From Raillietiella orientalis (Eukaryota), in assembly GCA_036172245.1 (NCBI GenBank), contig JAYWIR010000010.1, forward strand, positions 4,278,001 to 4,342,000: a stretch of 64,000 bases of DNA. The letters are read 5' to 3'. This document shows, in pieces, positions 1,767 to 53,333 of the stretch (position 1 is its first letter; every line of letters begins with the position of its first letter). The notes under the pieces were generated by a model, which had not been told where the DNA came from, ran no database searches, and saw only the letters and a list, made by a program, of their open reading frames with translations. Position numbers and translations under genes: made by a program.

Positions 1767-4700
1767 AATTATAGTAGCCTGTTTGAAGAGCGGACTTCCG
1801 TCCACGTCTTTTGCCAAATGGACAAGACGACAAGAGGTTTGTACCGATGAAACATATAGTGGACAAGCCACGTTGAAGTTAAGGATGTCCAAAGATACCA
1901 GGATACCTCGCACATGGTGCTATTAGACGAGCACACCACCAGTCTTCAGGTCACGTACCGGGAGCAATCCGACTTTTTGTCGGGGGTTTATGTTCTTTGG
2001 TCACCTCACGGCGGTCTGTCCAGCAGCAGGTGCAAGAAGTGCGGAAAGCCGGGTTACGCGACCGCCGAGTGCGTGTGCCTGGACCACCGCTACTTCTTCT
2101 GCAAGTCCGCGGATCACGAACGAAAGGACTGAGAGAAGTACGCAGGGTGGTCGGTCTTTCAAGAACTCCGGAGCTCCAAGGCTGCAAAGGATCAGGAGAA
2201 CGAGGCGACTTCTATGAGCCCTCTCACCGCCTCACCCTACCCGGCTGCAGCGCCCTCCTCCAGGAGGAAGACGCACAGCTCGGGAAAACCACGGAAGAAC
2301 ACGGTGGATGACAAGCAACCGCCCACCACCGTTTCCAGCCCAACAACCCGTGCGCACAGTAAAGAGGAAGGGGGGGAGGAGGAGGTAATGGAAACCGTCC
2401 CTGCAAAACAGACCGTTCTACCTTTCCCTCGCTCTTGGGGGCGATCGAGGAAATGAAACCGGAAAGCTCGTGAGCTCACCTCCAAAGACATGCTGGCGGA
2501 GCTGAAGGAACAGTCGATCCCCTCGCTGCCGAAGAACCAACTGGAGACCCAGGTCTACCCGGCGGTGCAGCTGGCCTTCGTCTCCTCCGAGCCGAAGCGC
2601 AAAGATTCGCGCGCTTCCACGGCCCAGCCGCAGGAGTCTCTGCCTGCGAAGGGAACATCTTCAGCTGCTTCCACATCGGAAAGCGAGGGAGGCGTCACGA
2701 TGGGCTGTTGCTCCACCTCCGAGGACGACGGATACCCCCAAGCGAAGTCGTCGACCAAACGGCCCACTGGCCACAAAGGACAGAAGAAATCAATCCTGGT
2801 GATCGCGCAGCAGTCCGAAAAGAAGAGGAAGGTGGCACCGGCCTCATCCTCCCACGCTCGCCACGAATCCATGGCGCAGTTCCTGTCGTCCGTGAGGAAG
2901 ATCGGAACATCCTGGAACATAAACGAGTGCACGAACTCGACGAGAGGAAGATCCATGAAGTGGCTCCTGAGTCAGGAGACTCACTTCCTGACTCCCAAAG
3001 TGCGAGACGAGCTCGAATGCGACCTTCAAGTGGACATCTACGTCGACCAAGGCACGACCAGCCGCAAGGGCGTATCCATACTTGTGAAGACTCTCTTGCA
3101 CCGACCGTCCTGGAGGTGTTCAGCGGATGAGCAGGTCACGTTCTAGATCTGAGGATGTCATGGTCCGGAAACGTCCACCTGTTCGTGGCTGAATGTCTAC
3201 GGACGACAGTTCGAGAAGAAAGCCTTCGCGGTCGCCCTCGTGGACCTGATCGAGACCAAGACCACACCCAAGGACGTCGTCGTGATCGCCGGCAACTTCA
3301 ACGTCCGTCTGGACGAGACTCGTCACGACGAGACCGGAGCACTGAGAGGGTTTACCGGCTCGTGGAGGAAGAATCTCGCCCCGACGTGCACGGGGACGAA
3401 CATGACGCGAATCGACCACATGCTGTGCCCCGAAGCTCTCACCAACCGTATCCAGGGGATCCGAGAACACCGGGATCTCGGACTACCCTCTGCTAAATTG
3501 GAGGAGAATGCTCTCACTGCCCCGGACAGCCCTCATCTGCCTGTTACTTTGCCGGAGGAGCGCCGGCCGTCGCCTTCCTTGCTCTTCCTGGGGTCCCCTA
3601 GGGCAGAAATGGGATCGCCCTCCCGTCGCCCTGGAAAGATGAGGTCTGCTCAAAGCGCTCCTGGTGATGACAGCATCCTCCAACCTCGTACCAGCGAGTC
3701 GTGGAGACCATCCTGAACGTGACCAACATCCTGCTCGTGGAGGACTGGGACACCTTCAAGCACACCATGCATCTCTTCTCTAAACTCCGATACGGTGACC
3801 GGGACCTCCGCGAGGAAGCCCACAGGGAGATCCACCAACTCCACCCTTCCCACTACTAGGAAGAGTACCGGATACTCTACCTCGACAGAAATGTCAAGAA
3901 AGACATCGAACGGCTGGAAAAAAGAAACCTGGCGACGAACATCTTTCACGTCCTTTATCAGGATAAGGACCGCAGAACCTTGGATGAAGTACCGGATGCC
4001 TTCCAGCACCACTACTCTGAGCTGTTCAGGATTAGGAATCTGGATATCGGGGGCCAGGAGCGGATTCTCCGCAACGCGAAGCAGCGCCTAGCCTCCCACG
4101 AACAACGAGAACTGGTGGAAGACTTCACCGCCGAAGAGGTCAAAACGGCGTTCAACGGACTGCGCAGAGACGTGGCAGCGGCTCTGTCACGCACTACCAG
4201 AGGTACCCGTCAGCCTATCTGAGCCTGTTCCGTCAATGCATTAACAAAGAAGGACGACTACCCGCCTCCTTCCACACAAGCAGGATGGGGTTGCTCCCCA
4301 AGAACGGCAGGGACCTTTTAACGTCAGTCAGTGGAGGCCCATCTCCGTCCTGAATTCAGGTGCAAAGTGGAAGTCGGAGATCTGGGCGAACCAACTGAAG
4401 AAGATGCCGAAGTCGATGGTTTCCCCCATGCAGAAGTGTGCCGTCCCAGGAAGACGCATGTGGGATAACCTGAAGTGCTCCCAGGCTTTTCTGGGATACA
4501 ATCGTATCCTAGGGAACGAACGACCTGGTTCACCGACATCGAGAAGGTCTTCGACTCGGTGCGGCACGTCGTGCTGCTGAAGATCCTGAGGGAGCTAGAC
4601 TTCCAGAGGAGATTCATGTAGTACATGGCCCACTCTGGAGGAGGCCAACTTGACGATCAGCGTAAACTGGTTCACGCCGCGGGACATCAAGATGGGAAGC

Positions 4701-9840: not shown

Positions 9841-12289
9841 AGGAAGTTTTACCCGCACGTGTGAAAATAAGGGAGACGGGAGCACCCGGAATGCCGCGTG
9901 CCTCCCTGCTGCGCCGGTTCGGAAACGCGGTCTCCGCCTCCCCGCCATTTGGGGCTGTTCGACACTTGCGCGGCAGCCTCGTGGGGTCAGAACCCCGTAA
10001 AAAGCACGCACGCACTTCCCTGGAGCAGTGGCGTCGCTTCCGTACCTGGTCTGCCGGGCGCGTGGGGCAAAAGCGGGCGGCAGCAGCCTGGGGGCGCCTC
10101 CCCCATCGCCGGCACCGGAACGGCAGGCAGGCACTCTGGGGTCGCGCCGTGCATCTCCGCCAGCCGGCATTCACGCAGCGTGGGGAGGACCGACTCGGGG
10201 AAGCCGAACGAACGAATTCCTCCTCTTCCTCGTGAGAGGGTCCAAGGCACGCTCCACGTTGCTATGCCACGCTCACGTTGGCGCCGGCCAAGCTCGATGA
10301 ATCTTGCGTTTTCGACGTGGACACGATTGTTGAACCGTTCGCCAATCGCGAAGCTTGTTATTTTTAGCACAACAATGGCGAGATTTGATTTTCTAAACGC
10401 AGAGTGTACAGGGGTGATAAGTAGGAAAAGTGTATAAAGTTTCGCTCTGTACATTCGTCTGAATACATTAAAGTAGTAGATATATTAGTAGATATATGAA
10501 TTGATCTCATTCGACGGAAAAAAAGCAGTTATTCGTTCATGTAGCGCAGCATAACCGCGTAAAATTTATCAATTGCTATTTGATTAATATATTTACACCG
10601 CACCTGGGATTTTATGTAACATTTGTAAATCGTTCCCTCAGGAGGAGAACTTGGGATCACTTGGGAACGTGGGATGTGCTTTTATTTACAAATACCATAA
10701 ATGCATAAGCATACACGCATAATATTCTGTATTACAGTCATGTACATGGTAAGCACAATGAAACATAATTTATAAAAAGTATTGAAAACAAGGTCAAGGA
10801 GTGCCAGTAATTTGACCTGAGGCTCTGTATTCTCATCGCATAGTGCAAGGTAAGAATCGTAGCACTTTCTGGAGAAAATGATTGCAAATCCTCCTTTAAT
10901 TTGGTAATTAGGACTTGCCTTTTAGTTTTCTTTCATATTTATATATATATATATAAACGAATTATTTTTATTGCAGCCTCAAGGAAGAGCTTCTTGATGA
11001 ATGTACTTCTGATATGTAACGGATGAAATTTAGGATTCATACACTGGCTTCGGCAGCAGCTGTTTCCACGCCGAATTTTTCTCTGGCTTTGATGACATGG
11101 TGTGTATTGATTTTAAGAGGAGTTGCAGCGTGGTAAGAGTGGCGTTTGAATCCGGAGGCCGTGGCGGATGCCTCAGAACGATTATTTATTGGATTACAGG
11201 GATACCTGAGAAAACCTTTCTCTGAGACGCGAACATCCTTGAATCTCTGAGGCATCAAGAAGGAAGGAACATTCCGGGGCAATAAATTTCAACAAATTGC
11301 TTGTCGGCTGCAATCGGCAGAGGACGAGGCGGAATCAACCAGAACGGAAAGGGAACGCGAAAGCAGAGCTCCGGAGGAGAGGAGCTCAGCGGCACGTTTC
11401 TCGCGTGCGAACCGCGTGCTCCGAGGCTGCGGAGGGCACACCTTCGGTTGGGACGAGCAGTCACGCTCCAGCTCAGCCTCCCCCCCCCCTTTCCGATTCC
11501 GACGTGGGGGGAGTGAGGCTCTTTGAAACAGAGCACGTCGAAGATTTGTCAGCGGGTCATTTGTGCGTTCAGCCCGTTTCCCTGCTCTCCACATCCCGTC
11601 CCTGGAGTTTCTTCCGAGATCCGGGGGGAAGCGGCTCACGGAAGGTGCACCTTGCGGCACGTGCGTGCACCGAGCGTGCGCAACTAGTTGCAGCCGGAAG
11701 TCTTTCGGAGGCTTCCATATTGGAGGGAGACCCTCGAATGGAAGAACGCAAGATGGAGACTGGAGGAGATGATGCAACTGCCTTCCCAGACCACGGCAAG
11801 CTGGTGCCTCTGACCCTTTTGCTTTTCAACAGATGCACTGTTGTGATATTCATCGGCAGTAATAAGAAAAAGAAATCCACGAGCACGTCTCCGCCATCTG
11901 GGGGGGGGGGGGGGGAAGGGAATAAGGAAGCTAGGAAGACGCCAATTTTTTGAATTACAGGATGCCGTCCGTGCCCCCGCCAGCTGCGGAGGAGACGACG
12001 GCCTCAACGAATCGCACAGGCGGGGGCGCGTTCGCAGCTCCAAGGACCACCGTTCGCGTCCTTTGGCTTGCGGGAACCGTCTTCAACGCTCTTCACCGCA
12101 CTGACCCGGGGGAGTCCTTCCTGTTTTGACAGTCTTCTCGGACATTTTCGTCCGTCGACAGGTTCCCGAACATTCTTAGGGCTCCGGCGCAAACTGGCAC
12201 CCACGATGGATTCACGGTAGTGGACCGGTAGTGTCAGTCTCACAAGAGGCGGCCGCTTCGAAAGTGGCACAGCTAGGAAGGTGACACCG

Positions 12290-12740
12290 ATCCCCCTTCA
12301 GCACTGCAATGAAGCAGATCGATCGACCCTCGAGGGTTGTCTCTTCAGAGAGTGTAAAGAAATGCGCTGTTCCCTTCGGGGAGCTCCTTCAGGGAAATGG
12401 GGGAGCATCCCTTCGGGGTTCTCTTCAGAGGAGCAACGAAGAGCGGATGCTTTCCGAAGGGTCCTGGGAAGAAGAAACGAGGAGTGGACCCCTCTAAAGA
12501 GAACAAGGAAGAGGTTCCTTCTGGGGTTACTCCTGCCGAGCGTAAGAGGAACACGGATTCCTTCCAGAGCCCTTCCTGGATTCGTGGAGTTGTCCTTCCG
12601 GGGTTGCCCCCTAACTCGAAGAGTCAACACGCACCCTTGGGTGGCATGGGCAGGGTTTACAAGAGCTTTGCGCTTTCCTCCCGAGGAGGCGAACGGCTCT
12701 TCAGCACTTGGCGAACCACGAAAGAAAGAAAAAACACCTG
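12290..12740 (+). mobile_element. Headless copy of the tRNA-headed hairpin-array element
   Basis: Colinear with the reverse complement of 21.0-21.6, 37.9-38.5 and 52.3-52.9 kb (CCCTTCGGGGTTCTCTTCAGAGGAG; CCTTCCTGGATTC; GCACTTGGCGAACC followed by an A-rich run). Confidence 0.85.
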
Positions 12741-12789
12741 GGTAGATGGTACTTGAGATTTCTGGAGCGCTTTTTATCGATAGGAAAGG

Positions 12790-14700
12790 CAAGTAGTTGG
12801 TGACGCCTCCTCAGGATCGTGTCTCTTCAGCCTCGTCTTCGGGACGAGCACGGGCTAGGACCTGTAGGTGACCCCATCCCTTGCTTCTGATCTCTCAAGT
12901 GTCGACTCCTTATGGCGATCCTCCCCCCTATCTCATGCTCTTTGTTGGTTTTTTCGGGATCCTTTCTGGACGCGGAGGGGGTAGTGGCTTTTCCTTGGGT
13001 CTCAGTCGAAGGTCTCGTCTCGTCCTAGGGTGGACTTGTCGTAGGCCAGCAGTTCCCATTGCCCGAGGATGGCCCTCTTTGTCCGTCACGCCTGAGGTTC
13101 CGTCTTAACGCCCGACGACCGCTGTCAGGTGGCTGAAGGTGCGGCAATCGAGGGCGTGGCGTGGGGATACCTCGCATCTTCTGAGGTCAGCTTCATCCCT
13201 GGCTGGTGACCCTCGAGCGGGCAGCTCCGTCGCCACTCTACGGGAAATCTCCCGAAACGCGATCCCTTTTGGCGCAAACGATGGTCTCCTGACCTGGGTG
13301 CCCCGCGATTCCGCGCGCGGGCCCGAGGCCACCGCTCCTTTCCTCGTGCTGGACATCGACGGTGAAGCTGCGAGTGTGAGATTGGGTGATTTGCCGTGGG
13401 AGGCTGCCTTCGACTTGGGACCACCTCCGGCGCTCGTACCCGCTCGCACGACGCCTTTGCCGTCGCTGCTGGGCTCTCGCACCACCACCCTCTTTTAGTT
13501 GCGTGACTGGACGCGAAAGCTCCACCCGGGTGCTCACTCGTCGGTAGCACCTGCGCTCGCCTTTCAGCCACTGGTCACGCAAGGCCGGATTGGGCGAGGT
13601 CGTCACCACTTCGGTCTTCGTCGTCATCGTGCGCTGCTGGAGTCTCGGATCGTCTTTTCCGGAGAGGTCGCTGCTCCTTTCAGAAGCGGGAGCGGGCTCC
13701 CGCGAGGGTCTGAGGGTTTCTGTGGCCGACACCTGGATCGAGTCGAACCCCCCTTTCCCGCTTCCGAAAGGCTCGCAGGCCTGGGTTAGCACTGGCATCC
13801 TGTTCGGCATCCTCGCTTGAAGCTCTGTCCCCTGCGGAGCGTCGCTCTTGTTCGTGCCGAGGCTGCAGGGTCTCCTTCCCTATCGTGCTAACGGAGCCGG
13901 TACATTACATAAGGGAGACTCCAGGATTCGAGGTCAATGGAGAACCACCTTTGTGGCGCTCCAGCAGCTGTGCAAAATCATACTTCATCAGGATCTTTGA
14001 TAGAGTGTGATTATCACGAAACTCCTCCAATCTCGGAGAAAGCAGCTGTGCATCCGAAGCGCCAACGTCAGTCCAACGCAATGCGCGTCGGACAGGCGCG
14101 CCTCTTTCCCTGAAGACGAAGCTCACGTCAGCGAACGTTCCGGAACTGAAGAGAGCCTGCGTTGGGAATCCGAACTCCTCCTCGCCCCCCAAATGAAGAC
14201 TCTTCTATCGCGTACCCTCGCTCTCACCTCAACTGGCCTGCTCGTGGCATCACGGCAAACGTTCCACGCGGTTTCATTCCCTGTTTCACAGTCCAAGCCG
14301 GGAACTTTCCTCGTAGAGAACCTTGGTGCCATCTCTCCGAAGAATTCCCGAACTCCTTGGCATGAGAATTCCGTCATCCTGAGTGGGGGACGCGCTTTCC
14401 CCCAGGGGGTTTCGTTGTTGTAAGCGCACGGGTCGGTCACCGAACGTATCGAAAGCATCATCAGCGTGCTCGCTGGTGCCGCTGTTCTCTCTGGGCGGTC
14501 CCAGACCAAACCCCGGCAGCTCCCCGTCTCAACCCCACCTCCACAGAAGAGGCAGCGCTTTGATCCCGGAGGAGACGGTTGACTTTCTGAGTCTTTCATT
14601 CCCGGTTCGAACTGCTTGTGGCACCCTCCAGAGTTGCCCCCTTCTGCGTCCGCCCGCACCAAAGATGCACGGCCTTCCCAGATACCTTGGGAGGCGAAGA
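12790..14700 (-). mobile_element. Possible decayed LINE ORF1-like region
   Basis: VREFFGEM..RKVPGLDCETGN..VRVRDRRVFIWG loosely resembles the Tx1 ORF1 segment before the knuckles, followed by S/P/R-rich sequence. No clean zinc knuckle seen. Confidence 0.25.
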
Positions 14701-19900: not shown

Positions 19901-20800
19901 TTTCCTTCTAGAAGCGGCTATGCATGGTGGAGATATCCCTGGAGACTTCTGGCGGATGAGGACACCTTGCTGTTGTCCTCATGAGGGCTGCTTCCGGTGA
20001 AGAAGCGTCTCGGCAAGTCCAAAGAGAGGGAGGCAGGGTCATGCGGTTGTCGGAGCGCCGTAGCGAGTCTCCGCCACGAGTCCTCAAGGGCACTGCAGTC
20101 CAGCAAAAAGAACGGGACGACCCGGGAAATCCTCGACGTGCCGAGCACTTCTGGTCTGTCAGCATGGAGGATGACCCGATGACTTCTCGAATGAGCGAGG
20201 CTGATTTTTTTTTTAATGTTTTTCATGAGATCGCGTTCGTTCTTCTACCTGTGAAGTCAAAACTCGTCTGAGCATCCTGAAAGTAGAGGGCGACGGCTTT
20301 CCCGGAGCCGGCGGCATTTCGGGATCCGGCCGCTAAGAAGCGATGAAAGACTTTTTTAGAGCGCGGCACCCTTCTTCATACGCAAACTGAAGCTCGGCGG
20401 GAACCGAAAGGGAGATAGCCTTGCTGCCCGAGAAAGATCGACTTCAGGCTGAAGCGCGAGCACTTCATCGTAGGCACGCTAGGATCGTGGGAGTCTTCAT
20501 AACGACGGAGCAATTCTGGAGTTGGGTATCCCGAAACAATGTGCGGAACACAACGAGGAATCTGCTGGTGGCGTCCTTCATGCGTCCAGGACCGCAGGAG
20601 CCTGCGAAGGATTCTTCTGTTTCTTGGGGAGATTCTTGGTAGACATCCGAGAAACCGAAAAGGGAGGTCCATCGTAAGCGTGCAGCAGCATCCAGCACGA
20701 AAAGGTCGATCGAATGACTAAGAGAAGGCCGGAAGGCGGGACGTTTCAAACGGCAACCCGTCGCTCCGAACGTGGAAGACAATCTGGAAGAGACTGCCTT
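16950..20800 (-). pseudogene. Heavily decayed ankyrin-repeat gene remnant, interrupted by LINE-B copy B3
   Basis: Scattered minus-strand ankyrin-like motifs: LERGANSSEDFEGRGETP, VDDGKIPF, GPSPLHA, RGRSPRKAVLLSG, AAHARDRKLQMP, RWTSLF, MKTPTILACLR. No continuous ORF. Confidence 0.5.
19662..20170 (-). mobile_element. 5'-truncated LINE-B copy (B3)
   Basis: LLDCSALEDSWRRLATAL..RRFF matches the family C-terminus. Terminal AATAAACGTCCCGGTGCGTGACCGGGTAAAA on the minus strand at 19662-19692. Confidence 0.85.
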
Positions 20801-20996: not shown

Positions 20997-21650
20997 TGGG
21001 TGATGGAAATCCTTTCGAGTTCTTCTGTTTTGCTGCTTTCCTTCCAGTTTTTTTTTTTCTTCCGGGTTTTCTTTTATTTTGGTTCGCAAAGTGCTGAATA
21101 ACCGTCGCCTCCTCAGGGGGGGGGGGCTCACGAAGCTCTTGTAGAAACCACCCACGCCGCCCGAGGGTGCGTGCAGCTCTTTAAAGGTTAGGGGGTCACC
21201 CCGTAGGGACTACCCTATGAATCCAGGGAGGCCCCGCGGAAGGGATCCATTCCTCTTTCTCTTTCCTCTTGGGTAGGGGGCCCCGAAGGGAACCTCTTTC
21301 CTCCTTCTCTCCGGAGTGACCCCCCAGAGGGGGGAAATTCCTCATTCCTTCTCCGAAGGGACCCCCTGGAAAGGATCCACTCCCGGAATTTCTTCTCCGG
21401 AGGAACCGCTTGGAAAGAATCCGCTCCTTGTTTCCTCCTCTGAAGAGAACCCCGAAGAGAGACTTCCCGATTTCTCTGAGGGGAGCTCTCCGAAGGGAGC
21501 AGAGCGCCTATTACACTCTGGAGGGGCGATGCCCCGAGGGGGGTACGACTCCATTTTCGCAACCGGAGGGGAACCCAAAAGGGAACAGAGTTCTTGATTC
21601 TTGGAAGGTCAACTGCCAATCCCGGCCAATCGACGGGGGCATCCGGTTTC
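20997..21650 (-). mobile_element. Headless copy of the hairpin-array element (about nine ~40-nt units)
   Basis: Degenerate tandem unit on + strand approx. CTCTCCGGAGGGAACCCCGAAGGGA..CTCC at 21220-21600. Colinear with the 37.9-38.6 and 52.2-53.0 kb copies. Confidence 0.88.
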
Positions 21651-21720
21651 CGACTCCCTTCTTTTGCAGCTATCTTCTCTTTCCGCGGGTTGATTACGTC
21701 GTCTGGAAGACATCCTAGAC

Positions 21721-22573
21721 CAGTGCTTCTCAAAGTGGGCGGTACTGCCCCCTGGTGAGCGCTGGAACAATCCAGGAAGGGGGCGATAGTAGCCTCAGGT
21801 GCAACTGGGGGGCGTTGAATAAAAATAGGCGAGGGCGATGAAAGAATAAAGAAAGAGAAGATGGGAAAATAAAAAAAAAAAACCTTTGTACAAGTTTCAT
21901 CTGTTGTGTACCACGAGAAGCCGTAGTTAGGTTAGGCACTTTGTTTCCCAAACAAACACACAAAATGCAAGTTGCAATCCATTAGTGGTCAAGTCTGCGG
22001 GCAGTCTCGTCAAGAACGTGTTGATAGGCGAGCGCACTGTCGGAGAACCCAGCATCCATCTGCAGGAATGTGTGAGTCATTACTTGCTTAAATTACGATT
22101 CTATTAATGGGAGAAATTATGAAATCAAGTTTAAAGTGTTTCTGAACTGCGCGAGAAGCAGTCAAAAATAGTGCAAGTGCATTAATTTTTAAATTAATGT
22201 ACTTGCACTAGTTACAGGCAGGTTACAGGCAAGTTACAGGTGAGTATATATGTATATGTGTAAATCTACCATACGGTTCTGTGTCTTCTAGTGTTTACTA
22301 CTAATCAAATTGTAGCAGGCTTGTGTCGGTACAATACTTTTTGAAGTGTACAGTTGATATATTTGTCAAATCTTTTATTACAATATCAACGAACACAGGA
22401 GAACGAAATCGCAAAAGAAAAACAAACTGTTGACCATTAACATTTACATACATTTCATTTCCATCGAACCATTTGTGTTAATTGGTAAATGAGAAGGTAC
22501 ATTTTCAGGGAAGCGCTGAGTAATTTTCTATAGGAAAAAGGGACGGTAGGCCAAATAAGCTTGGGGACCTATG
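21721..22573 (+). mobile_element. Non-autonomous hAT (Charlie/Buster-type) DNA transposon
   Basis: 5' end CAGTGCTTCTCAAAGT; 3' end AAGCTTGGGGACCTATG (degenerate TIR). 8-bp flanks TCCTAGAC and CTCTGGAC match 5/8 and fit the nTCTAGAn target. AT-rich interior. Confidence 0.75.
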
Positions 22574-25500
22574 CTCTGGACGTTGCGTCCAGTAGGGATC
22601 CCCGCTGTACTGGATGCATGAAAGAAGTCACCATCAAGGGTCTCGCATACCGCTTCGGGATCCCCAACTTCCGAATTACTCTATCGTCACGAAGACCTCC
22701 ACGATCCTAGCGCGCCTACGATGAAGTGTTCGGTCTTCAGCCTGCAAGTCCTTTTTTCTTGAGCAGGTCACACCAGGTCAGGTCTCTTACTGGAATCTCA
22801 GCCAGACGCAGGGTTGTTAGACCAGCTTCCACTCTGCGGTATCCGCCGCTGCCGTTAGCCGTTCAGCGACGACATTGTGCCCAGCTGTGTCTAGGAGAGA
22901 ATGCCTCACTCAATGATCCAAAATGTGAGGCAAGGTCCCATCCCAAGATTTACGGCATCGGTCTGATCTTCCTCCTTGGAGACCTCCTTGTGATCTTGGC
23001 CGAAAGGCCGAGAAACGATTTCACAGTGCTTCCTGGGGACACGTCGCCCGCAGGTAGAAGGGTTTCACACCCTGATCGGCAGGGATCATCAAAGTAGCAG
23101 CCCAGAATGAAAAAGGATCCAAATTCTGGTTTCATGTAAGCGAATTCTTCCGCGTCAGGCTGGACATAGAAAATATACTGGGAGCCCTGGCTGCCCGTGT
23201 GCTTGGGGGTTCGGGTACAGATTTTTTTTTCTCAGCGCTCTATCTACGTTGTTTCATTATTATATTCCGTGGATGTATTATTTATCTACAAAACATGCAA
23301 CCCATGAAGAACCGCGAAGTTTTTATGTATTCTTATCACAAGTTAATTTAGGATGGATTTACGTTGGTGTTTAAGCATGTCTAAATTTGGAGTCCTGTGG
23401 TTAGCAAAAATAGCATCTCGGGCTGCCATTTTCACAGCCAAACTATGGAGGACAAAAAAGGAAGTTGAGAGAAAGGAAACCTGAGGGATTCCCGACAAAT
23501 GGAGGTTTTTTCCCTTTTCGTTTTGTTGAGGAAGGAACTTGGAAGGATGAGCGGCTCTTTTTCCCTTCTTCTTTCCCTCCTAATCCATGTATTTCCTATT
23601 TTCCGTGATCGTTCTCGATAAGAGTTGCTTACCAAGTACGATGTGGTTTCATCATCTCGTTCAGTTGAAAGTGGAAGACGATCCTGGAATTGATTCTCAG
23701 TTCTGTTTCTTGAGGAAACTCTTGGTAGATCTGAGCACCTGAAACTTTTGTTTCTTACGTTCGGTTCTCGTTCCTGAAGCAAACCCGAAAAGAGAATGCC
23801 CATAACGGCTTCTGTAATTTGTACAAGCGATTGATCAAGAACATGCATTTGTAGTCAAAAATCACGGAATCACCCTATTCCGATAGGCACTGATCATTCA
23901 TAAATTTACAGAATTTGTTTAAAGTTCTACGAAAGCTGATCAAAAGTTTGGAATGGGTGGTTTACATTTCATGGGTGTTAAACCTCCATGAAATCGCGAA
24001 AGAAAGAAAAAAAAAAAGGCAACATTTGTGAAGTCTTCCCCGAAAGGAGAGCAAAAGGCTGAGAAACGGATTGTGGACTGACCAAGCTGTTGAGAAGAGG
24101 ACCAACTGCAAAACAGATACGATTCATCATCAAAACCAATTTTGCATTTCAAGTTTGGACGCATTTCCCCTTCTTGGAGTTTTCTAGATACAGATCTTTC
24201 ATACTGTTCGTATTGTTTCTTTCAAGTAGCCACCCCTAAAAGATGATTTTGAATCACGCATCATCCATATCCGTTTCATCTTTCGAGCCCCATGGTCGTT
24301 TCCATAGTTGTTGATAGCTTGCAAACAGAAAGTTCAGTACGGGATTAGACAGTTGATGGGAAAATGAAGAGTAATTTCAGAGTGCGGGACTCATCAGATT
24401 TTGACCTTCCGTGTTGACGGCACGCGAGTCGCGGTTGGACGGAACGCTTTTTCGCGTACCGCGTGCTCCGTCGAGGTGCAGACTGACTAACATGAAGTTA
24501 CTATTGTAATTGTTCATTTACGCCACATTAAATAAAATATTTTCACTTTCCCCAAACATATATTATTTATATAAAAATTACAATTCGAATAAACCAATAA
24601 CTGATTCACATTTTCAAGATATCACAAAGATGGTAAACGGTATGATAAATCACATGCCATACCGAGAAACACCGACAACAGTCAGCCGATATAAATAGAA
24701 TTTTGTTTACTGTCGTTGCCAAGGGACTGAATTATAAGAGCGTAAGTGCATGTGTCCATCTCAAACATGGATAGTGTTAACACGTGTCGCGTGGACAAGG
24801 CAAAAGCATTTGCCAAACGCATAGATGCGTCCATAACGCACGCTGATGGTTTCCGTCGGATGCACATGTGCGTCCATAGGGTCAATGCATTTTCGTATGC
24901 AGGACTTCTAAAGGGACACAAGAAATGGCACAGAATTGGCTGTGTTGAATTCGAGAAAGTAAGCACTGTGTATACTTGATACTTTGCATTCACTACTTTA
25001 TCTGAAATGAACTTATGGAAATGTTAGATGCTTCACTCCTACGGATTAACCAAAAAGGCCGAATAGAGACCACCGGCAATGCTGGATGCATTTCTTGGCC
25101 TGCATCGCCTGCTGGCTCGTTCGCACATTGCATCTGATTCCACTTACGTCCTCGTGGTAGAAGAAGCAAGTAGCACTATCTGGAGCACTACCTGCACCGC
25201 ACGCTCTCCACTTGACTCGGGAGATCCACAAGAGCGTGCCTTTGCATTCCCCCCGGGAAGGTGGTGTACTCGATGGCACCAGCGAAGGCCGGATTGGTAT
25301 TTTGCGTTTAGGATCGTGATAAGTTAGTGAAGTATAATTGCTTCCAGCAAAATGTAGATTAGGATTCAAACTGAAGACTCAGCGGGTGGCCTCTGTAAAA
25401 AAAAAAGAAAAAGAAAAAAGAAAGAAATGCTGCTAGCCATGATTCGAAGCGAAATCAGTCCACACGTCCATTCAGCAATGGTTTGGACCCACATTCGTTG

Positions 25501-31430: not shown

Positions 31431-32446
31431 ATTATCACCCGTTCATGCCGGAGCATTTATTACATAGAGCTGACGTTGCATTGGGGTCTACCCTGCAACG
31501 CGCGCTGCTTCCACTGGACCCGGGGGAGAGTAAATCCTGAGTGTGCCCGGTGTGGGGAGCGGGAATCGCTCCCCCACCTTCTTGTTGACTGTGCTGCCCT
31601 CCGACCCATGTGGGAACGGTTTGGGACGACCCTAGGGCTCCCTACGGGCAGTGCGCTCAGAGACGTTTTCCGACTTCTCTTCGTGCGGGACGCCCTGCAG
31701 CCAGTCGCAGCCGTGGCAGCATTATGCTGCATCCGAGGCGTCGTGGCGGCGTGGAGTGATGCCTGCGACGAAGATGTGGACCAGAACGAGAGGGCCGTCA
31801 TCCCGTATGCTGTTTGCTTTCTGACGAGAGCTACTGGATGGCCCCAGCTGGGTACAATTCGAATGGACTTAAAGGGCTTCCTTCGCAGGATGGGCCCTCC
31901 TCACAGTGCACAGTGTTCCCTTCCCAGCCCTCCAACTTCTTTTTGTTTTCCTTACTTTTTATTTTTCCTTTTGTTTTCTCCCCCATCCTTTCCACTGCCG
32001 AGGAGAGCCACGTCGGGCTGCTTCCCGGCGTCCCAGCAGGTCCGGCGTTGTGTGGCCGTTAGTGGGGCCTGGTACCACGTATGTAGAATGTTTTTTAATA
32101 AACGCCCCGGGATCACCCGGGTGGAAATTACGTAGAGTGATAAAAAAATACATTGGTGTGGTTCTAACTACGTTCTAACCACGTGTGATGTACCTGCCGA
32201 AGAGCGGCTCGCAGACCAGCGAGGTCCGCTTCGGCAGCGTGGGGGAGGGGAAAGCAAAAACAAATAAAACAGGGGAGGGGAATTTCTGCACGGGGAGGGT
32301 GTGGAACCGAGAAAGGGATCACGGTACTCTTCCAGGTGTCCTCTGCGTCCTGTTCAGGATGCTGGCAGGTTCCGTGGGGATTCGAACCCGCAACGTCTGG
32401 GCGCCACGCGCGGAGACACTGCAGCCACGCAACCGCCAAAGCGGGC
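31431..32446 (-). mobile_element. tRNA-headed SINE (~350 bp net) with LINE-B-derived 3' tail, split by B4
   Basis: Head GCCCGCTTTGGCGG..GTGG with B-box GGTTCGAATCC (32378-32388) joins CAGCATCCTGAACAGGACGCAGAGGAC (compare 1465-1491). Terminal AATAAATGCTCCGGCATGAACGGGTGATAA at 31432-31461. Confidence 0.85.
31470..32128 (+). mobile_element. 5'-truncated LINE-B copy (B4)
   Basis: Open frame LHWGLPCN..CARCGERESLPHLLVDCAALRPMW (CCHC). TSD ATTAC(A/G)TAGAG at 31459-31469 and 32127-32137. Confidence 0.92.
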
Positions 32447-37499: not shown

Positions 37500-37700
37500 T
37501 GGGCCAAGTTTTCAACTAGCCACAATCACGTCTCTGTCTCCGCTCCTCAGCTACTTCCAGTCTGTCCTTCAGCCGTCACTTCTCCCTGTCAGGGCACACC
37601 AAAATCGCCGCGAGGACAGAGGTACTTCACGCTGCACCTGGGCAGGGTGTTGGGTCAAGTTTTCAACTGGCGACTAACGCGTATCCGTCTCCGTCCTCGA
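37500..37700. repeat. Diverged direct repeat with ~150-bp period
   Basis: TGGGCCAAGTTTTCAACTAGC..GTCTCCGCTCCTC versus TGGGTCAAGTTTTCAACTGGC..GTCTCCGTCCTC. Confidence 0.7.
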
Positions 37701-37859
37701 CACAGCGCACGCGCGCGCAAAGGCTCTCCTTAGGGAGCAGTCGTTCCGACCATCATCTGCTGGCACGGGATGCGGTCGCTGTCTCCGGGAGCCACGAAGC
37801 GCGCTCCTTCGTCGCCCGAATTGTAGCGACGGTGGATTCATGGTGCCGTTCTTCGGTGT

Positions 37860-38771
37860 GGTCCTCACGATCGTTCTTCTGGCGACTAGGGTGATGATGG
37901 AGATCCTTTTGGAGTTCTTTTCTGTCTTCGCTGTTTTCCTATCAGCTTTTTTTTTTTTTTCGGGTTTTCTTTTTTGGGGGCTCGCCAAGTGCCTCAGGAA
38001 CCGTCGTACCCCTGGCGGCGGCTCACGCAGCTCTCTGACGCTGTTCCATGCCAACAGAGGGTGCGTGTAATTCTTCAAGATGGAGGGTACCCCGGGAGGG
38101 GGATTCAAGGATTCATAGGGAGGGGACCACCCTATGAATCCAGGAAGGGCTCCAGAGAAAGGAGTCAATTCCTCTCTCTCCTGGGGAGGGATCCCCGAAA
38201 GGAATCCTCCACCCTGGTTGTCTCCGAAGAGAACCCCCCAAAGGGGGCCACTCCATTGTTTCTTCTCCGAAGGGAACCCGGATAGGGTCCGCTAGTAGGA
38301 ATTTCTTCTCCGGAGGGATCCCCCCTGTTTTCCCCCCGGAAGAGAACCCCGAAGGGACGCTTCCGAAATTTCTCAGAAGGACGTTCCCCGAAGGGAGCGG
38401 CGCGCTTCTCTGCACTCTGGAGTGGTACCACACCTACGCCATGGTACGAGACGGAGGGTATCCACCAAAGGGGGAGTCCGCTTCTCTGCGCAACCAGAGG
38501 GGAACCCTCACTCCTTGATTCTGTTTCCTGGAAAACCCCGGAGGATCAACTCCCATTGCCCCGAACACTCATCGGGGGCATCCGGATTGAACCGCTACCG
38601 GTGCCACACCCGAAGTCAACTGCGGCTAAGCAGCGCCATCTTGCAGAAGGAACTGGAAACCCACGACGCACCCCCATTTCTCCGGCGTCGATTCTTCCCG
38701 GGTGGGATTCGAACCGACGACGCTTGGTGCTGCTCTCGGGAGACCGTGACTGCGTGGCCTCCGACGAGGAC
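37860..38771 (-). mobile_element. tRNA-headed hairpin-array element, complete head
   Basis: B-box GGTTCGAATCC at 38705-38715; CAAGATGGCG at 38634-38643; array at 38130-38550. Confidence 0.88.
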
Positions 38772-38779
38772 CGACACCC

Positions 38780-40216
38780 TTTCCACGCCACCCGAGGGTG
38801 CGTGTGGCTCTTCAGGCTAGGTAGCGCCCCAGGGAAAGGACCATCCCGTGAATCCAGAGAGAAGAGTCCATTCCTCTCACGCTTGGGAGGGAACCTCGAA
38901 GGGAACCTCCTCTTCCTTATTCTCTCCGGAGAAGGTCGCCCCTCGTTTCTACCCCGATTTCCACCTGGGTCACCGATGCGCAGGGGGGCTGACCTCGATC
39001 ATGGCGGAGGAGGAGTTGAGAAAACAAAAGGAAAAGGTAAATAAAAATGAATAAAAATCTCCGGAGGGTCAGAAAAGAAAAGGGCCACTGTCCACTGGAG
39101 GGAGTCTGTATCCTTTCCAGGATGCCTGCTAGGTACGTCCGTATAGGTCCCAGGTGAGGCCATCTGGCTGCTGCCATCTGCAGAATGCGTACTGCGAACT
39201 GGACGGCGCCCCGGACATCCCCTGCCGGTTACGCTTCAGGTCGTCACGATCCCGCGGATGCAGCAAAGCGCTTCTGGGGCTGCGGCTGGCTGCAGGTCAC
39301 CTCCCACAAAGAGGAGCCGTAAAACTCCTGGAGGGAGAGGGAGGCTAACTGAGATCCAGAGGATCGTCCCGAAACGTTCTCTCTGGTGCCGGAGGGCAAC
39401 ACGGTCCACGAGCAGGTGCGGGAGGGATTCCTGTTCCGCCCAGCACCTGCGACAGCCTGGGCTCACCCTTCCCAGTGTCCACTGGTGTCGGCGGGAGCTG
39501 CAGGGAAGGCCATGGCGCAACAGTAGCAGAAATGCCAACCCCTGCCACTCCAGGAGGAGAGCGCTGTTGCTATTAAGCACTGCAAAACACTCCAGGTTTC
39601 TGCCGAGCAGCTCGCCCCAGAGCTGTAGCCCTCGTGGAAGGGCACTCGAAGTCGCAGCATCCATCAGTTGCCCCATGGTCCATGCACTCATCAGTTTCTT
39701 CCTGCCTGCGTTTCTTCTTCAGAAGGATCCCCCGGAAAGGGTCCACTCTTGTTTCCTCTTCCTATGAAGAGAATTTCGAAGGAATGCTTCCCAATTTTCC
39801 TGTAGGGCGCTCCCCGAAGGGAGCAGCGCGCTTTTTCTTCATATTCTGGAGAGCTGCCATCAATCCGCCATCTCCATGGTACGAGATGGAGACTTATCCC
39901 CAAAGAGGAAAGGGTACGGCCCCATTTTCACAACCGATGGAGAACCCCGAAGGGAGCCGGCTCCTTGATTCCTGGAAGGACCCCAGAGGGTCGAACCTCA
40001 ATCCCGGCCAGTCAACGGTGGCATCCGACTTTCACTAATGCCTCGCCCGAAGCCACCGGGGGATCAACCAGCGTCATCCTGGGGGTAATGGACTCGAGAC
40101 CCATGACGCACCCTCCGTTCTCCGGCGTCGATCCTTCCCCCGGTGAGATTCGAACCCACGACGCCAGGAGACGCCACACGCTGAGACCGCAGTAGCCGCT
40201 CGGTCAGCGCTGCGGC
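38780..40216 (-). mobile_element. tRNA-headed hairpin-array element interrupted by LINE-B copy B7
   Basis: tRNA-like head GCAGCGCTGACCGAGCGG..GTGGGTTCGAATCTCACC (B-box 40146-40156). Body stops near 39710 and resumes colinearly near 38950. Confidence 0.82.
38957..39708 (-). mobile_element. 5'-truncated LINE-B copy (B7)
   Basis: CRRCWAEQESLPHLLVDR. Ends CCCAGGTGGAAAT. Degenerate TSD CGTTTCT(A/T)C on both sides. Confidence 0.85.
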
Positions 40217-41199
40217 CAGGTGGTGCAGCCCTCCGCTCCAAATTCCTGCGCAGGAAGTTCCTCGACTCATTCCTGACGTTCCCGTAGACCCTGTCGAACC
40301 CTTCGTTTCTCGGTGGCGGGCCGCTGTCGACTCAGAGCCGCTTCCTCCTCCAGAGTGCCGTGCACCTCCGAGCGTCCGAGATGAAATAAACTCTTCGCAA
40401 CATCGCAGTTCTGCTGCCTCCGAGAGCGGCCGCCGCGATACCGAAGAGTCTCCGCAGGGGAAATCGCCCCTGAGGTCCCGAAGAAGGGTCCCAGGGGCTC
40501 AGGGGAAAGTGAAAGCAGCGTTGCAGAAGAGCCGAAGAGCCATCGCGTCGCTCCTTCCTTCAGAGACCTCTCCCTCCTTCCCCTCGACAGGGAAGCTCTG
40601 GGAGAACCCGTCCTCCAGCCCTTCTGCACCCTTCGCGAGCCCCGCTCCTTCTCCCCGACTCGCCGGAGCCTGAGAAAACCAGCCGCCTCCCGACGAGGAA
40701 GCACTGGGGGAGGCTTTGTTCCCGGAGGCTGGGTGGACGGATGGCTTTGCTTCGGTGCTACCCCATATTCAGCAGGTCCCCATCGCCACACCTTGGAGGA
40801 TGCCAACCTCCAGGATGCCGCCGCCCTGCTGTCCCCAGCGCAGCAACCGACGCCTTCTGTGGGACGGGGTGAGCCTCGTGCGGGACGCCTCGTGACCCAA
40901 CGCCAGGTCAGCCTGCCAAAGGGAACCCGTACAATGGCGCCGATGGAAAAGCGGAGCAGTCCGAACCCCAGCCATCGAGAACGCCCCACCCCACTGAGGG
41001 GCTCGAGAATAAGTTGGGGTCGTTTTGGTCCCCGGGGATTCCGGCTATTCGCTCTGCCGTACGGCGCTCCCTTCCCTCCCTTCTGCTGGGATGGGCGCGC
41101 CGGCTGTTCCCAGGGAGGCCTTACAGGGAGCAGGAAGCGAACGAAACAGGCCCATTCCGTCTCTCGCCTCTGCCGTTGCCTGGGAGACCGCACAGGCGA

Positions 41200-48800: not shown

Positions 48801-49803
48801 GCGCTCGCGCAGAATCACTCGACTGGAATCTCTGGGATAGATGTGACTCCCTGTACTGGAAACTGCGGTCGCCATGGAGACCGAGGGATGGAGGCTAGGC
48901 CCGTCGTGTGCTTTTAGAAGCCAAATTCTGTCGGGGAAGGAAGGGGGGGGGGGGGCAAAGTGCTTGCAGCACTTTTCCCCCCACGCCACCCCGTTCCCTC
49001 TAACAGAAGAATTCCCTGAAATTCACCACCGCCCTTTTGTCGACGAAAGCCAACGCGCTGGCGAAATCTTCTCTCAGTCTCACCAGCCTTATCACGATGA
49101 TGATACGTCGCACCGACATCTTCCCTCCGACGCAAAAAAAAGAAAAAAGAAGTCCTCTGAGAGCCTCGCACGTACTCTTCGCCCTGGCGAATGAGTGGTT
49201 CGCTTAGGGCAAAGAAGACTCCAGTTAGACGCTTGCCGTTTGTCCAGAGAAGCGGAAGCAGCCGGCCCTCGGAGGAAACGAGGCTTGTCTGTCGGTTTTC
49301 TTGAAGCGTTTGCGATGAGTAGCAGAGAGAGAGAAAAGCTGAGCTCATTTGATCCTCAAGAGCGCACAAACCGGACGACGGAAGGTCTGACTGGTACCAT
49401 CAACGAATCCTCTATGGCGCTTCTTCTTCGCCCTCCTTGCTCCATTCGTCTCGGTCCGTTCATACTCTGAGACAGCTGGAACGCTTCCCCGCGTCTTTCC
49501 TTTCGTCGGAGCACTGCTCTTTCCGTGACCTGCGAAGGGCCTGCCGGCATCCTGGGATTGCATCGAGTCAAACCGAAGCGCCCACTTCCTCCACTGGAAG
49601 CGCTCCTGAGTGCCCTGGGAGTTGTGAAAACGCTCCGGGACGGGAACAGGGGAGCATCGCAACGAATGGGGGAGTGTGCTCCCTCTGTTTGGAGACTCTC
49701 TAGTGTTCCTGCTGGTTATGAGGACGAGAGAGAGCTCGGTTCGAGCGATTGATTTCGGTGCCCGGAGGAGCCCACCCTCTCACCTTCCATTTTCATCCCG
49801 TGA

Positions 49804-52074
49804 CAAATGCCGCTGCCAAAGGCACACGGTATCGACAGAAGCGGCCGGAGGGTACGCCGGGTGCCTTGGCGGTCGCAGTCGACCTCCACAAGGCGTTCGA
49901 TTGCGTGAACCAAGGACTCCTATTGGAGTTCTTGGAACGCCTGGGTCTCCCGGCGCAACTCCTGAAGTACTTGCGCGCATGCTGGCGCCACGCACTAACT
50001 TGCATTTGTTTCAGCGGCTGCCACGTGTACGGTATTCCCGTGCGCATGGGCATCAGGCAGGGTGACAGTTTAAGCCCGTTGCTCTTCAGCATCTTCTTTG
50101 AGTTGGTGCTGAGGGCGTACAGGCTGACGCTGGAATACCTGCCTAGCTCTTGCCCGGGAACGCCTGCAGTGGCCGCCTATGCAGATGACCTGCTCCTTCT
50201 GCTCCCCATGTCCACCCCCGCGTCCAGTGTCGAAGATTTCCTCGAACTGGTTCGACGGGGAGCAGGCGTGAGGGTGAACAGGAAAAAGAGCGTGGTCGTT
50301 CCTGTAGGAGCGTCGTGGGAGGGGCAGTCCAACTGGATCCGCCTGAGGATCCCCACGGCAGGGTACTTCAAGTACCGCGTTCCGTTGGGCGACCTCGGCG
50401 CTGCCGAGGCGTGGTCGGACTGCCTTCATAAGGCAGAGTTGGCTGCCAGCCCGTTTATTAACGGCAAGTTTACCTTGCCGGAACGGGCGGCTATTTGGAA
50501 CACCTTCGTGGCCCCCCTCCTCCAACCCCTCTTTTTTGTCTTGGACCCCCCCTACGCGGCCAGAGAGCGGGAAAAACGCCTGCTAAGGAACGCTCTATGG
50601 GGTCCGGCGCGATCCAGAATCCGTCTGAAAGACCTCACTGCTCCACGTCGGGATGCTGGGCTTGGCATTCTTACGATGGAGAGAATCGGACTGCAAGTGC
50701 AGTTCCGGATGCTCGCACTGTGTGCCAAGCTATAGACTTCCCCCCTGTGTGCGCCTGCGCGCATCCTCCTAAGGAGGTGTGCAGGCAGTGAAGGACTTCT
50801 TTCCTTGGTGCCTGGCTTGCGCCACAGGAAACAGGGATTTGGCTATCCGTTGAGGAAAATCGCCACCCTATTGGAAGCCAATACGTGGATTTCCTGCTGC
50901 CCTACAATGCTTGGCGGCAGGAATCCATTGATTCTTGGGCTGCATTCTTAGGAATGAGCCGTGAAGATCTTCGCCCCCTGCATCGATTCCAACCTTGGTC
51001 ACTCCAAGATGTCATGCAGGACGAGGTGAAGTTTTCATCCTTGGCAGCCACGCCTCTTGCCGAAGCACTGTCTGCCCTCGAGGTTCGAAATGACAGTAGC
51101 CAGCCGGCAAGGTGGGAGTTCTCCTGCACCATTGCAGGAAGAACGAAACTACTTGGCCAATGGGCCACGAGCGAGCTTGCGGATGCCGCTACTTTTCGTG
51201 CTACACCAAAGGGGTTACTCCGGTGGGGAGAAGCTCTTGGTGTTTCCCCCGAGAAACTTATAATCCCTCCCTGGTGTTTGGACGGTTCGGTGTTTCCCCT
51301 TGCATGGAAGCAAGACGTCTTGCTCTTCTTGCACTGAGGCTTGTGCTACAACGAGCGGCGCCACCGAGTTTCCGGTGGGGTGGCTTCTCCCTACTGTGCC
51401 CGGTGCAGGGCGACGGAGTCGTTCCCGCACCTTGTTATGGACTGCGGTGCCCTCCAGGAACTTTGGCGGAGATTAGCAGCAGCTCTCCTGCCAACGGGGG
51501 ACACCGCCCAAGAAGTTCTGCGACGGTTCTTCCAACCACGAGGACTTTCGACGGCTGAGATGTTGGTTGCATCCGCGCAATCGTCACGGTCCGAGACGTG
51601 CTGGAGAACACTGGTCAGCAATGTTGTGTCACCAGGAAGGCTGCCGACTTCATCAGGGCTGCAGCTGGGTGGCGACACTTGAGTGAAGACGCAACGGAGG
51701 AGCTAACTGGCATCCATCGCCGGATGCGCAACGGTTCCGAACGACGAACCCCGTGATCCACCTCCATTCCCTTTAAACTGTATTTTTGTTGTCGCGTCCC
51801 TCCTCCCATTCGCTCCGTAGTGCTTTGGTGCTTCCACTCTGTTTTTCCCGGTGACTGCGGAGCGTCACCAAAGTTCCCTAGCCCATTCCGCCCATTTAGA
51901 CTTTTCTTTTTTGTTTGTAGTCCCCTCCTCCCCCATTCGTTCAGGTCCTTCCTTTTACCTGGCCTGCGTGCCAGTGGTGAATCTCCGTTGTTAGTTTTTG
52001 TAGCCGTTGGCTGGAAACAATTGCTTCCAGCTAGTTTTTATCAATAAACGTCCCGGCGTGACCGGGTAAGAAAA
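49804..52074 (+). mobile_element. LINE-B copy (B8): RT core to 3' end
   Basis: VDLHKAFD, GIRQGDSLSPLLF, YADD, VNRKKS, APRRDAGLG, YCARCRATESFPHLVMDC. 15-bp TSD ATTTTCATCCCG(T/C)GA at 49789-49803 and 52075-52089. AATAAA at 52043-52048. Confidence 0.95.
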
Positions 52075-52147: not shown

Positions 52148-53207
52148 GGCCAGTAGCGACCCCCACGAGGAGACAGTTACTATTGGCCTAGGACGATGGA
52201 AATCCTTGGGTTCTTCTTTTTTCTTCTGTATGCTGTTTTCCTTTCAGCTTTTTTTTTTTTTTAAGATTTTTCTTTTTTTGGTTCGCTAAGTACCTCAGAG
52301 CCGGTCGCGTGCCTCGCAGCGCACGTGGCTCTTTTTAAACACACTGTTTTGTTTCCACGCCCCTCCGCCCGCGGCAACCTGCAGGGGGGCGTGTAATTCT
52401 TCAGGATAGGGGGCACCCCGGAATGGGGGTCCGCCCTATGAATCCAGGAAGGGCTCGGAGTCCGTTCCTCTCACGCTTGGGGAGGGGGTCTCCTCTGGAT
52501 GGGGGGGATCGCACCTCCCACCCTGGTTGTCACCGAAAGGGAAACCCGAAGGGAATCTCCTTCCTCATTCTCTCCGGAGGGATACCCCCTCTCTAATGGG
52601 AAGGGGCTGTCCTCTCCATTTCAACTTCTCCGAAGGGAACCCGGAAAGGATCCGCTTGTAGGAATTTCTTCTCCGGTGGGAACCCGCAAGGGAACCGCTC
52701 CTGTTCACTCCTCTGAAGAGAACCCCAAAGGGACGCTCCCGAAACTCAGAAGGGGCGCTGCAGCTTCCCGCAGGGAATCTCTCTCGCTTGCTTCCTTGCA
52801 CTCTGTGAAGAGGCGACGACTCGGAGGGTCCCCCCCTCACAGGGGGGTCCACTCCTTTAAACAACTGGAGAGGTGCCCGTGAGGGCTCTTGCTCCATCTT
52901 GAAACCGGTGAGGTCACCCAGTGGGGGGGTCCGCTCTCCGTTGCACGACAGGAGGGGGAACTCCCCACTCCTTTATTCCTGGGATGACCCGAAGGTCAAT
53001 TTCCCATTGTTCCGGCCTTCATCGGGGACCTCCGGTTTTAACCGCTACCGGTGCCACGTCCGAATGTCTCGGCCAACCAGCGCCATCTTGCAGGAGAAAC
53101 TCGGAACCCGACGACGCAGTGGCGTCAGAGTTTCTGCCGGAGTATTCGAACCCGCGACTCATGGTGCCTCACACGGAAGCCTTAACCACAAGGCCTCCGA
53201 CGCGGGC
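52148..53207 (-). mobile_element. tRNA-headed hairpin-array element, longest copy
   Basis: Head GCCCGCGTCGGAGGCCTTGTGGTTAAGG, B-box 53142-53152, CAAGATGGCG 53081-53090, array 52440-53000. First sense-strand TTTT at 52144-52147. Confidence 0.88.
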
Positions 53208-53211
53208 TTTT

Positions 53212-53333
53212 AAGCGTTCACAGCACCCGGGGTTCCCAGGCGGTCGCCCATCCGAGTATTGACCGGGCCCGACGCTGCTTAACTTCGCCGATCAAACGAG
53301 AGACGGTGCTTTCAGCGTGGTGTGGCCGTGAAC
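53212..53333 (-). rRNA. 5S rRNA: 5S rRNA copy (solitary variant or pseudogene, possibly a SINE3-type head)
   Basis: GTTCACGGCCACACCACGCTGAAAGCACCG..GAAGTTAAGCAGCGTCGGGCC..TACTCGGATGGGCGACCGCCTGGGAACCCCGGGTGCTGTGAAC; ~120 nt, box A and C present, helix I fully paired, no oligo-T terminator. Confidence 0.93.

Follow-up and report, generated by a model that had tools for sequence, protein, structure and literature searches.

The DNA window and its gene content

The window, by which we mean the whole 64,000-nucleotide stretch of DNA that was analysed, is eukaryotic, repeat-rich DNA with a G+C content of 54%, a CpG observed/expected ratio of 0.92 and a TpA value of 0.52. This GC-rich, TA-poor sequence holds 170 open frames of at least 120 codons. 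A Pfam scan of these frames, run in two batches of 92 and 78, gave a single match that passed the cut-off and one that came close to it:

49722..50732, plus strand: open frame matching RVT_1 (E = 6.2e-14), the sole Pfam pass among the 170 frames
3153..3713, plus strand: open frame matching Exo_endo_phos, slightly under the Pfam cut-off

The frame at 49722..50732 resembles the solved L1 ORF2p and R2 proteins and has only two weak relatives in a word-indexed protein search. The spliced-leader motif of dinoflagellates is without a match. A LINE reverse transcriptase is present within the window. Elsewhere, a block at 40001-45000 with 64-68% G+C contains many overlapping open frames without a Pfam match, and after it comes a compound microsatellite of the AATG/AAGT type at 45555-45833.

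A degenerate tandem array

The feature with which we are mainly concerned lies near the first third of the window, inside one copy (copy B) of a dispersed element. The strand on which this element has its head at the 5′ end, here called the head strand, is the minus strand for copy B.

21186..21602, minus strand: degenerate tandem array of 10 units, defined by unit cutting, periodicity and identity against shuffled sequence

The units are 38, 45, 42, 36, 43, 44, 42, 42, 45 and 40 nt long, so that the first-pass annotation, which had described about nine tandem units of about 40 nt at 21220..21600, gave a fair count of them. Each unit runs from a purine-rich part through a CCC..GGG core, often centred on TTCG, to a CTCC-like end, and CTCC followed by GGAG is the common junction between units. 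Tandem Repeats Finder (TRF) picks up only 2.5 copies, with a period of 44, at 21344-21453. Autocorrelation of copy B has peaks at lags of 44 (z 6.6), 42, 83-86 and 123-127, to be read against shuffle maxima whose 95th percentile is 3.6; copy C of the element peaks at lags of 41-43 (z about 4), and copies E and A do so more weakly. The mean unit-to-unit identity in copy B is 0.606, as compared with 0.476 ± 0.014 in dinucleotide-shuffled arrays cut identically (z 9.5), and none of the 200 shuffled arrays reaches it. A unit profile made from 16 units of copies B and C found 25 matches at E ≤ 0.42, all within copies of the element and all on the head strand; they include units of copies A, D and E and of fragment C2, which were absent from the training set, as well as all ten units of copy B, which formed part of it. 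The best match outside the copies has an E-value of 0.78. Periodicity, unit identity and profile matches together indicate that the tandem array is real.

A degenerate 23-nt pattern taken from the best-kept unit has no relatives among metagenome or prokaryote-genome contigs; one metagenome contig (L001) carries a single match to the pattern, which is due to chance, the contig having no other likeness to the window.

A family of dispersed copies

Self-comparison and a profile search have revealed six copies or fragments of the element in the 64 kb, in both orientations:

12289..12799, plus strand: copy A, 5′-truncated, one unit short, tail diverged
21001..21712, minus strand: copy B, 5′-truncated, without head, common 3′ end kept
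21001..21110, minus strand: 3′ part of copy B, A-rich and closing with the shared end ...GGATTTCCATC
37893..38781, minus strand: copy C, full length, with head
38778..38968, minus strand: fragment C2, body units 7-10 (model positions 515-710, E = 2.1e-51)
39689..40228, minus strand: copy D, head and 5′ half, stopping within the array
52192..53208, minus strand: copy E, full length, with head and additional insertions in the array

Copy B is matched by the element profile from model position 136 to 841 (nhmmer, E = 1.4e-187), and the copies, B and C2 included, are collinear in a common alignment (A1). Full copies measure about 880 nt (C) and 1020 nt (E), and identity between copies over the array is 67-74%. 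Copies B (21001), C (37893) and E (52192) have the same 3′ end, an A-rich region and then ...GGATTTCCATC, and differ in their 5′ ends; the 3′ end of the element is constant, with no terminal poly(A). Past the common ends, the flanks of the copies show no likeness to each other in self-comparison and profile search within the window, and the 3′ tail has no profile match elsewhere in the window, which includes the absence of a LINE sharing it. Target-site duplications beyond chance were not found at the six sets of boundaries, where the longest shared words are 4-6 nt and are equalled in 29-100 of 100 shuffles; the copies are 26-33% different over the array, so such duplications may have decayed.

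Units at the same position in different copies have a mean identity of 0.63-0.70, as against 0.53-0.59 for units at different positions, which supports the view, proposed from the sequence at first sight, that the units diverged before the copies spread. Copy A is short by exactly one unit, through an indel of 44/45 nt. Short contigs from one DNA run, apparently of the same organism, were also aligned to 37700-40400: 116 of the 170 contigs that map there are under 90% alike, which points to many diverged copies, one contig of 241 nt is identical, and another skips 44 nt at 38280-38325. These contigs fit an old high-copy family in which the number of units is variable. The copies fill about 3.8 kb of the 64 kb; if the window is typical, the family makes up several percent of the genome and thus belongs in a repeat library for masking and annotation.

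The end of copy D and the start of fragment C2 adjoin in the element, so that C2 may continue copy D, as a single copy split by an insertion of some 710 bp. The DNA that separates the two (38990-39700, about 710 bp) has raised contig depth at 39338-39428 in run X1, and the insert may be another repeat.

The element has no coding capacity. A protein-coding repeat, with head-strand open frames of 130-240 codons over the array, might be read into the open frames at 21218-21931 (minus strand), 12221-12742 (plus strand) and 37677-38291 (minus strand), but frames of this size are commonplace in the window, as the total of 170 indicates. Every copy has stops in all frames of its head strand, and the sole stop-free frame is antisense and belongs to copy A, the shortest (451 nt). 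Between 7 of 9 and 11 of 13 array indels per copy pair are not a multiple of 3, and the open frames over the copies have no Pfam match. The coding reading is refuted by these frame-shifting indels between copies, and its probability is next to nil.

The head and its 5S rRNA neighbour

The element had been called tRNA-headed. The head region, about 85 nt long, is present in copies C, D and E, and all three carry a motif of the GGTTCGAAT type, which we take, by eye and against the consensus, to be B-box- or T-arm-like. A-box-like motifs in D and E agree with the consensus, compared in the same way, at 8-9 of 11 positions, and a TGGTTAAGGC-type stretch in the head of copy E resembles the D-loop of class II tRNAs.

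40136..40222, minus strand: tRNA-like head of copy D, with B-box-like GGGTTCGAATCTC, reported by ARAGORN at ps80 only
53215..53333, minus strand: full-length 5S rRNA match (Rfam RF00001, 97.3 bits, model positions 1-120)

Over the whole window, ARAGORN reports no tRNA by default or with -ps; at ps80 it reports one of the three element heads (that of D) and, at 32367-32443, a relative that consists of the head only. No match to the Rfam tRNA model is found at E ≤ 1 in the copies C-D and E, nor at E ≤ 10 in the head of D, and the T-arm of that head resembles mascRNA at an E-value of 0.34, below threshold. What stands of the description is a weakly tRNA-like head in C, D and E; copy B itself has no head and the heads fail tRNA models, so that "tRNA-headed" is a plausible but not an established description of the element. 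On the minus strand at 32367-32443, the second tRNA-like head is akin to that of the element (profile E = 0.012) and is followed by another body, perhaps that of a sister family sharing this head.

Runs of at least four T on the head strand number none in E, one in C, none in D, one in B and none in A, the two runs being at different places, while A runs number 7-9 per full copy. This scarcity would fit a Pol III transcript of the head strand, yet it is also roughly what is expected from a T content of 18-21%, which by our rough estimate gives about one T run per kb.

The 5S rRNA match lies directly 5′ of the head of copy E on the same strand, with no T run between them. It is the sole 5S sequence in the window and accompanies one of the three head-bearing copies, being lacking from C and D, and so may represent a single event and not a feature of the family. 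The arrangement could be a template-switch chimera, a composite head of 5S and tRNA, or an insertion beside a 5S gene. At gathering scores, Rfam recognises the 5S rRNA only, and in E-value mode nothing else was found at E ≤ 0.2 for B, C-D and E; no Rfam family matches the element.

The UUCG motif

The first-pass annotation described at this locus a recurrent loop motif, C(UUCG)G, in an array of tandem hairpins. CCCTTCGG occurs 17 times in the window, as against 4.27 ± 2.18 expected, a number that none of 100 shuffles reaches. Thirteen of the 17 are inside copies of the element, 12 of them on the head strand. Counted on the head strand of the copies, CTTCGG is found 17 times and CCGAAG once. 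The places that had been named for the motif are right to within a few bases, and its reported confinement to the head strand holds at 17:1, with one exception. Does such regularity reveal an RNA structure? A strand-constant CTTCGG is what direct repeats of one unit and copies of one element produce, and since the units share one founder, the recurrence of the motif amounts to one observation, not to ten or seventeen.

The position of the motif in the units is also less regular than it first seemed. Copy B has four CTTCGG, at 21495, 21457, 21358 and 21288, and that at 21358 spans a unit junction, so that three of the ten units have the motif at the place of the loop. Single folds of 36 units (30-60 nt, taken from five copies) gave a TTCG tetraloop in the best fold of three, all of them positional unit 3 (of A, C and D). 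The statement that the hairpins are capped by cUUCGg was therefore an overstatement. In unit 3, a 6-bp stem with a TTCG loop (alignment columns 57-74) is still intact in A, C and D, three of the five copies; in E, a U-A pair there has replaced C-G, and in copy B the 3′ arm has decayed:

21478..21519, minus strand: unit 3 of copy B, 3′ arm decayed to GGAGAGC

Folding and covariation

Folded globally, 21200-21600 shows no excess stability over dinucleotide shuffles in either direction, the z-score being −0.45 for the head strand and −0.62 for its complement. Local folding, with the pair span limited to 36 nt and again compared with dinucleotide shuffles, gave the following z-scores:

Copy B: head strand −0.75, antisense strand −1.68
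Copy A: head strand −0.98, antisense strand −0.46
Copy D: head strand −0.61, antisense strand −0.41
Copy C: head strand −2.45, antisense strand −2.20
Copy E: head strand −3.70, antisense strand −3.98
Consensus array of the family: head strand −2.65, antisense strand −3.46

For the 36 units folded singly, the mean z is −0.18 (head) and −0.39 (antisense), and on either strand five of them lie below −1.64. These scores indicate that, at the DNA level, certain copies have somewhat more short inverted repeats than shuffles do; copy B is not among them, and the head strand is not favoured. The hairpins of copy B fold no better than shuffled sequence, and the stretch therefore looks like ordinary repeat DNA.

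Covariation was considered both between copies and among units. With RNAalifold, the two strands reach −25.8 and −24.5 kcal/mol and the covariation terms, +3.77 and +3.92, are unfavourable in both cases, so that neither strand is preferred. Between copies, two-sided pair changes number 15 on the head strand, as compared with 9.3 in shuffles (reached by 4 of 500), and 11 on the antisense strand, as compared with 6.5 (reached by 7 of 500); the structures tested are span-limited consensus structures taken from the very alignments on which they were tested, power is low with only five sequences, and related sequences pass such a control in 5-25% of structure-free trials. An RNA selected on one strand should tolerate G·U but not A·C, and the departures from Watson-Crick pairing are 29 G·U and 23 A·C in the head-strand structure and 18 and 18 in the antisense structure. 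Among the ten units of copy B, 67.5% of the positions of an 8-bp stem are paired, as against 66.0 ± 2.5 in shuffles (reached by 163 of 500), sliding the partner by −1 makes 70.1% of the cells pair, and only the inner three C-G pairs are kept. Strand-specific covariation is thus not seen: the weak signal between copies is equal on both strands, and among units there is none. A selected array of exceptionally stable UUCG hairpins, as had been suggested, fails in the folding of copy B, in strand bias and in covariation alike.

A regular recurrence of C(UUCG)G on one strand can stem from tandem duplication and shared descent, which calls for caution: recurrence of a motif is in itself no evidence for RNA structure, for which folding and covariation tests on both strands are needed.

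Other repeats in the window

Several further repeats share the window with the element. Inverted repeats of 113 bp, 82% alike, are located at 20424-20535 and 22654-22766, 466 and 942 bp from copy B. Copy B may have inserted into a 2.3 kb foldback or DNA-transposon-like element of which these are the ends, or the reverse could be the case. Copy E and the 5S match are enclosed by another inverted repeat, whose arms of about 540 bp (51017-51554 and 54218-54759) are 70% alike; the left arm extends the LINE frame downstream of the reverse transcriptase, so the two arms resemble decayed LINE fragments that point towards each other.

The youngest repeat in the window by far is a direct duplicate of 716 bp at 5708-6423 and 55547-56262, 98% identical, which contains an A-rich AAAAAAAAAG-like stretch at 5818-5857. 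A GGGGCGTTTATT-like word was seen by eye next to A/T-rich sequence at 5680-5693 (plus strand), about 32095-32110 (minus strand) and about 52040-52062 (minus strand), and may mark the end of another repeat family. The segments 32053-32128 and 37066-37141 are 96% alike.

Nature and origin of the element

The best reading of the copy B stretch is a worn repeat array of about 42 bases per unit within an old, many-copy mobile element of the SINE type, about 1 kb long. The repeat architecture and the family of copies have been demonstrated here, as have the lack of coding capacity and of a structural signal. We put at roughly 0.6 the probability that the array is the central body of an old, abundant and non-coding SINE-like retroposon of about 0.9-1.0 kb, in which the hairpins are incidental.

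An outline of such an element is as follows. On the head strand, it begins with a decayed class-II-tRNA-like head containing A-box-like and B-box-like motifs, from which it would be transcribed by Pol III. A unique stretch of about 150 nt follows, and then the array itself, some 10 units each roughly 42 nt long, presumably generated by tandem duplication of one unit. After another stretch, of about 130 nt, come the A-rich region and the fixed non-poly(A) end, whose recognition by a LINE reverse transcriptase would bring about mobilisation. The array would have diversified in the source element prior to the spread of the copies, and it would still be gaining and losing entire units. From the founding unit, every unit would have inherited a short CCC-(TTCG-like)-GGG inverted repeat, an origin that can reasonably explain why the motif has a period of about 42 nt and is constantly on one strand; the hairpins would then be a by-product of the repeat rather than an RNA structure under selection.

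Features in favour of a SINE are the head and the fixed 3′ end, truncation on the 5′ side, the abundance, the non-coding nature and the presence of a LINE reverse transcriptase. Its length of 0.9-1.0 kb, the lack of target-site duplications at the six sets of boundaries and, in the window, of a LINE with the same tail, and the failure of the head in tRNA models count against it. Against the incidental nature of the hairpins are the folds of C, E and the consensus, which beat shuffles, and the excess of pair changes between copies, both being the same on the two strands. Three options had been offered for the array, namely a SINE body, a multivalent protein-binding scaffold and a LINE 5′ UTR monomer array. 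The first fits best with a dispersed, non-coding, often 5′-truncated element having a common 3′ end and a weakly tRNA-like head with a B-box-like motif. The last is unsupported, since none of the copies has a LINE reading frame of its own orientation next to it.

Among the alternatives that dispense with a SINE, the element could be part of a larger or other mobile element (the untranslated region of a LINE, for instance, a non-autonomous LTR element, or a minisatellite-bearing Helitron or DNA transposon), with the tRNA-like head there by chance or secondarily. We regard this as unlikely. Its length of about 1 kb, the missing target-site duplications and the head that fails tRNA models would suit it, as would the location of copy B between the 113-bp inverted repeats (82%) and of copy E between the two inverted LINE-like fragments (70%), but these two pairs are unrelated and nothing like them surrounds A, C or D, the flanks of the copies are unlike past the common ends, and no frame with a LINE domain lies beside any copy on its own strand. 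Moreover, target-primed reverse transcription yields 5′ truncation with a fixed 3′ end, and this is the pattern of the copies. A host minisatellite locus spread by segmental duplication, and not a mobile element at all, would account for a tandem array with a variable number of units; six copies in both orientations with unrelated flanks, a discrete common 3′ end, and the 116 of 170 run contigs under 90% alike on 37700-40400 make this explanation extremely improbable.

Alternatively, the array of this same element could be under selection for its RNA structure: a Pol III transcript some 1 kb long would contain about ten cooperating hairpins that act, for example, as a multivalent platform for an RNA-binding protein of the partner LINE or of the host. 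The stem and TTCG loop of unit 3 in A, C and D, with U-A for C-G in E, argue for it, and so do the local folds of C, E and the consensus, the two-sided pair changes above shuffles between copies, and a head strand nearly without T runs over 1 kb. The antisense strand, however, gives folding and covariation signals that are as strong or stronger, stem decay has led to G·U and A·C alike, and copies B, A and D fold like shuffles; among the units only the inner CCC/GGG is kept and covariation is absent. One founder unit makes the recurrence of the motif count once, and few T runs are consistent with 18-21% T. We therefore consider a selected structure improbable. The more specific version, in which a Pol III retroposon RNA of about 1 kb has its CCC-UUCG-GGG array kept in the source gene as a multivalent platform, e.g., for a LINE RNA-binding protein, is very improbable; were it true, the element would be an unusually long SINE with a new type of body, and the 5S-fused copy E would show a second Pol III promoter being recruited.

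Comparison with known elements

A literature search made without the name of the organism, and hence a weak negative, found no description of a tRNA-headed element some 1 kb long that contains an array of 42-nt hairpins. The length of the element and its single 5S fusion would be of interest to transposon specialists only if they were confirmed genome-wide.

LINE 5′ UTR monomers, as in mouse L1, are about 200 nt long and are located directly upstream of ORF1. Like the element described here, these arrays consist of tandem units in a retroelement, at one end of it; unlike them, the six copies have no LINE frame beside them on their own strand, neither of the LINE-domain frames (3153-3713 and 49722-50732, both on the plus strand) lying beside a copy on that copy's strand. 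Non-autonomous retroposons with internal arrays are a kind already known, and SVA is an example. It is a composite with an internal GC-rich VNTR, which is built of units about 35-50 nt long and gains or loses entire units, and the middle of our element is also a GC-rich tandem array varying in the same way. SVA is primate-specific, transcribed by Pol II and composed of Alu-like and SINE-R parts with a poly(A) end, and has no sequence relation to the element.

The 5S match beside copy E likewise has counterparts. AmnSINE1 is a chimera of 5S rRNA and a tRNA-SINE. For HaSE3 of Helicoverpa, a composite 5S rRNA/tRNA head has been proposed (PMC3272025). The 5S match of copy E, head-to-tail with a tRNA-like head on the same strand, is similar to these chimeras, and the presence of 5S in one of three head-bearing copies is a difference. 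SINE-linked tandem repeats are also known: parts of SINEs are reported to have been amplified into satellites outside the element (PMC10702118). The link between a SINE and tandem repeats is common to both cases, whereas the array here lies inside each dispersed copy.

The closest comparison is with tRNA-derived SINEs of the SINE2 type. The element differs from them in its length, 0.9-1.0 kb as opposed to the usual 100-600 nt, in a head too decayed for tRNA models, in having within the window neither target-site duplications nor a partner LINE tail, and in a body that is a 10-unit minisatellite and not a unique or conserved core domain. It resembles them in its B-box- and A-box-like head, its non-coding body and its fixed 3′ end, and in its many dispersed copies, often 5′-truncated, in a genome that also contains a LINE reverse transcriptase.
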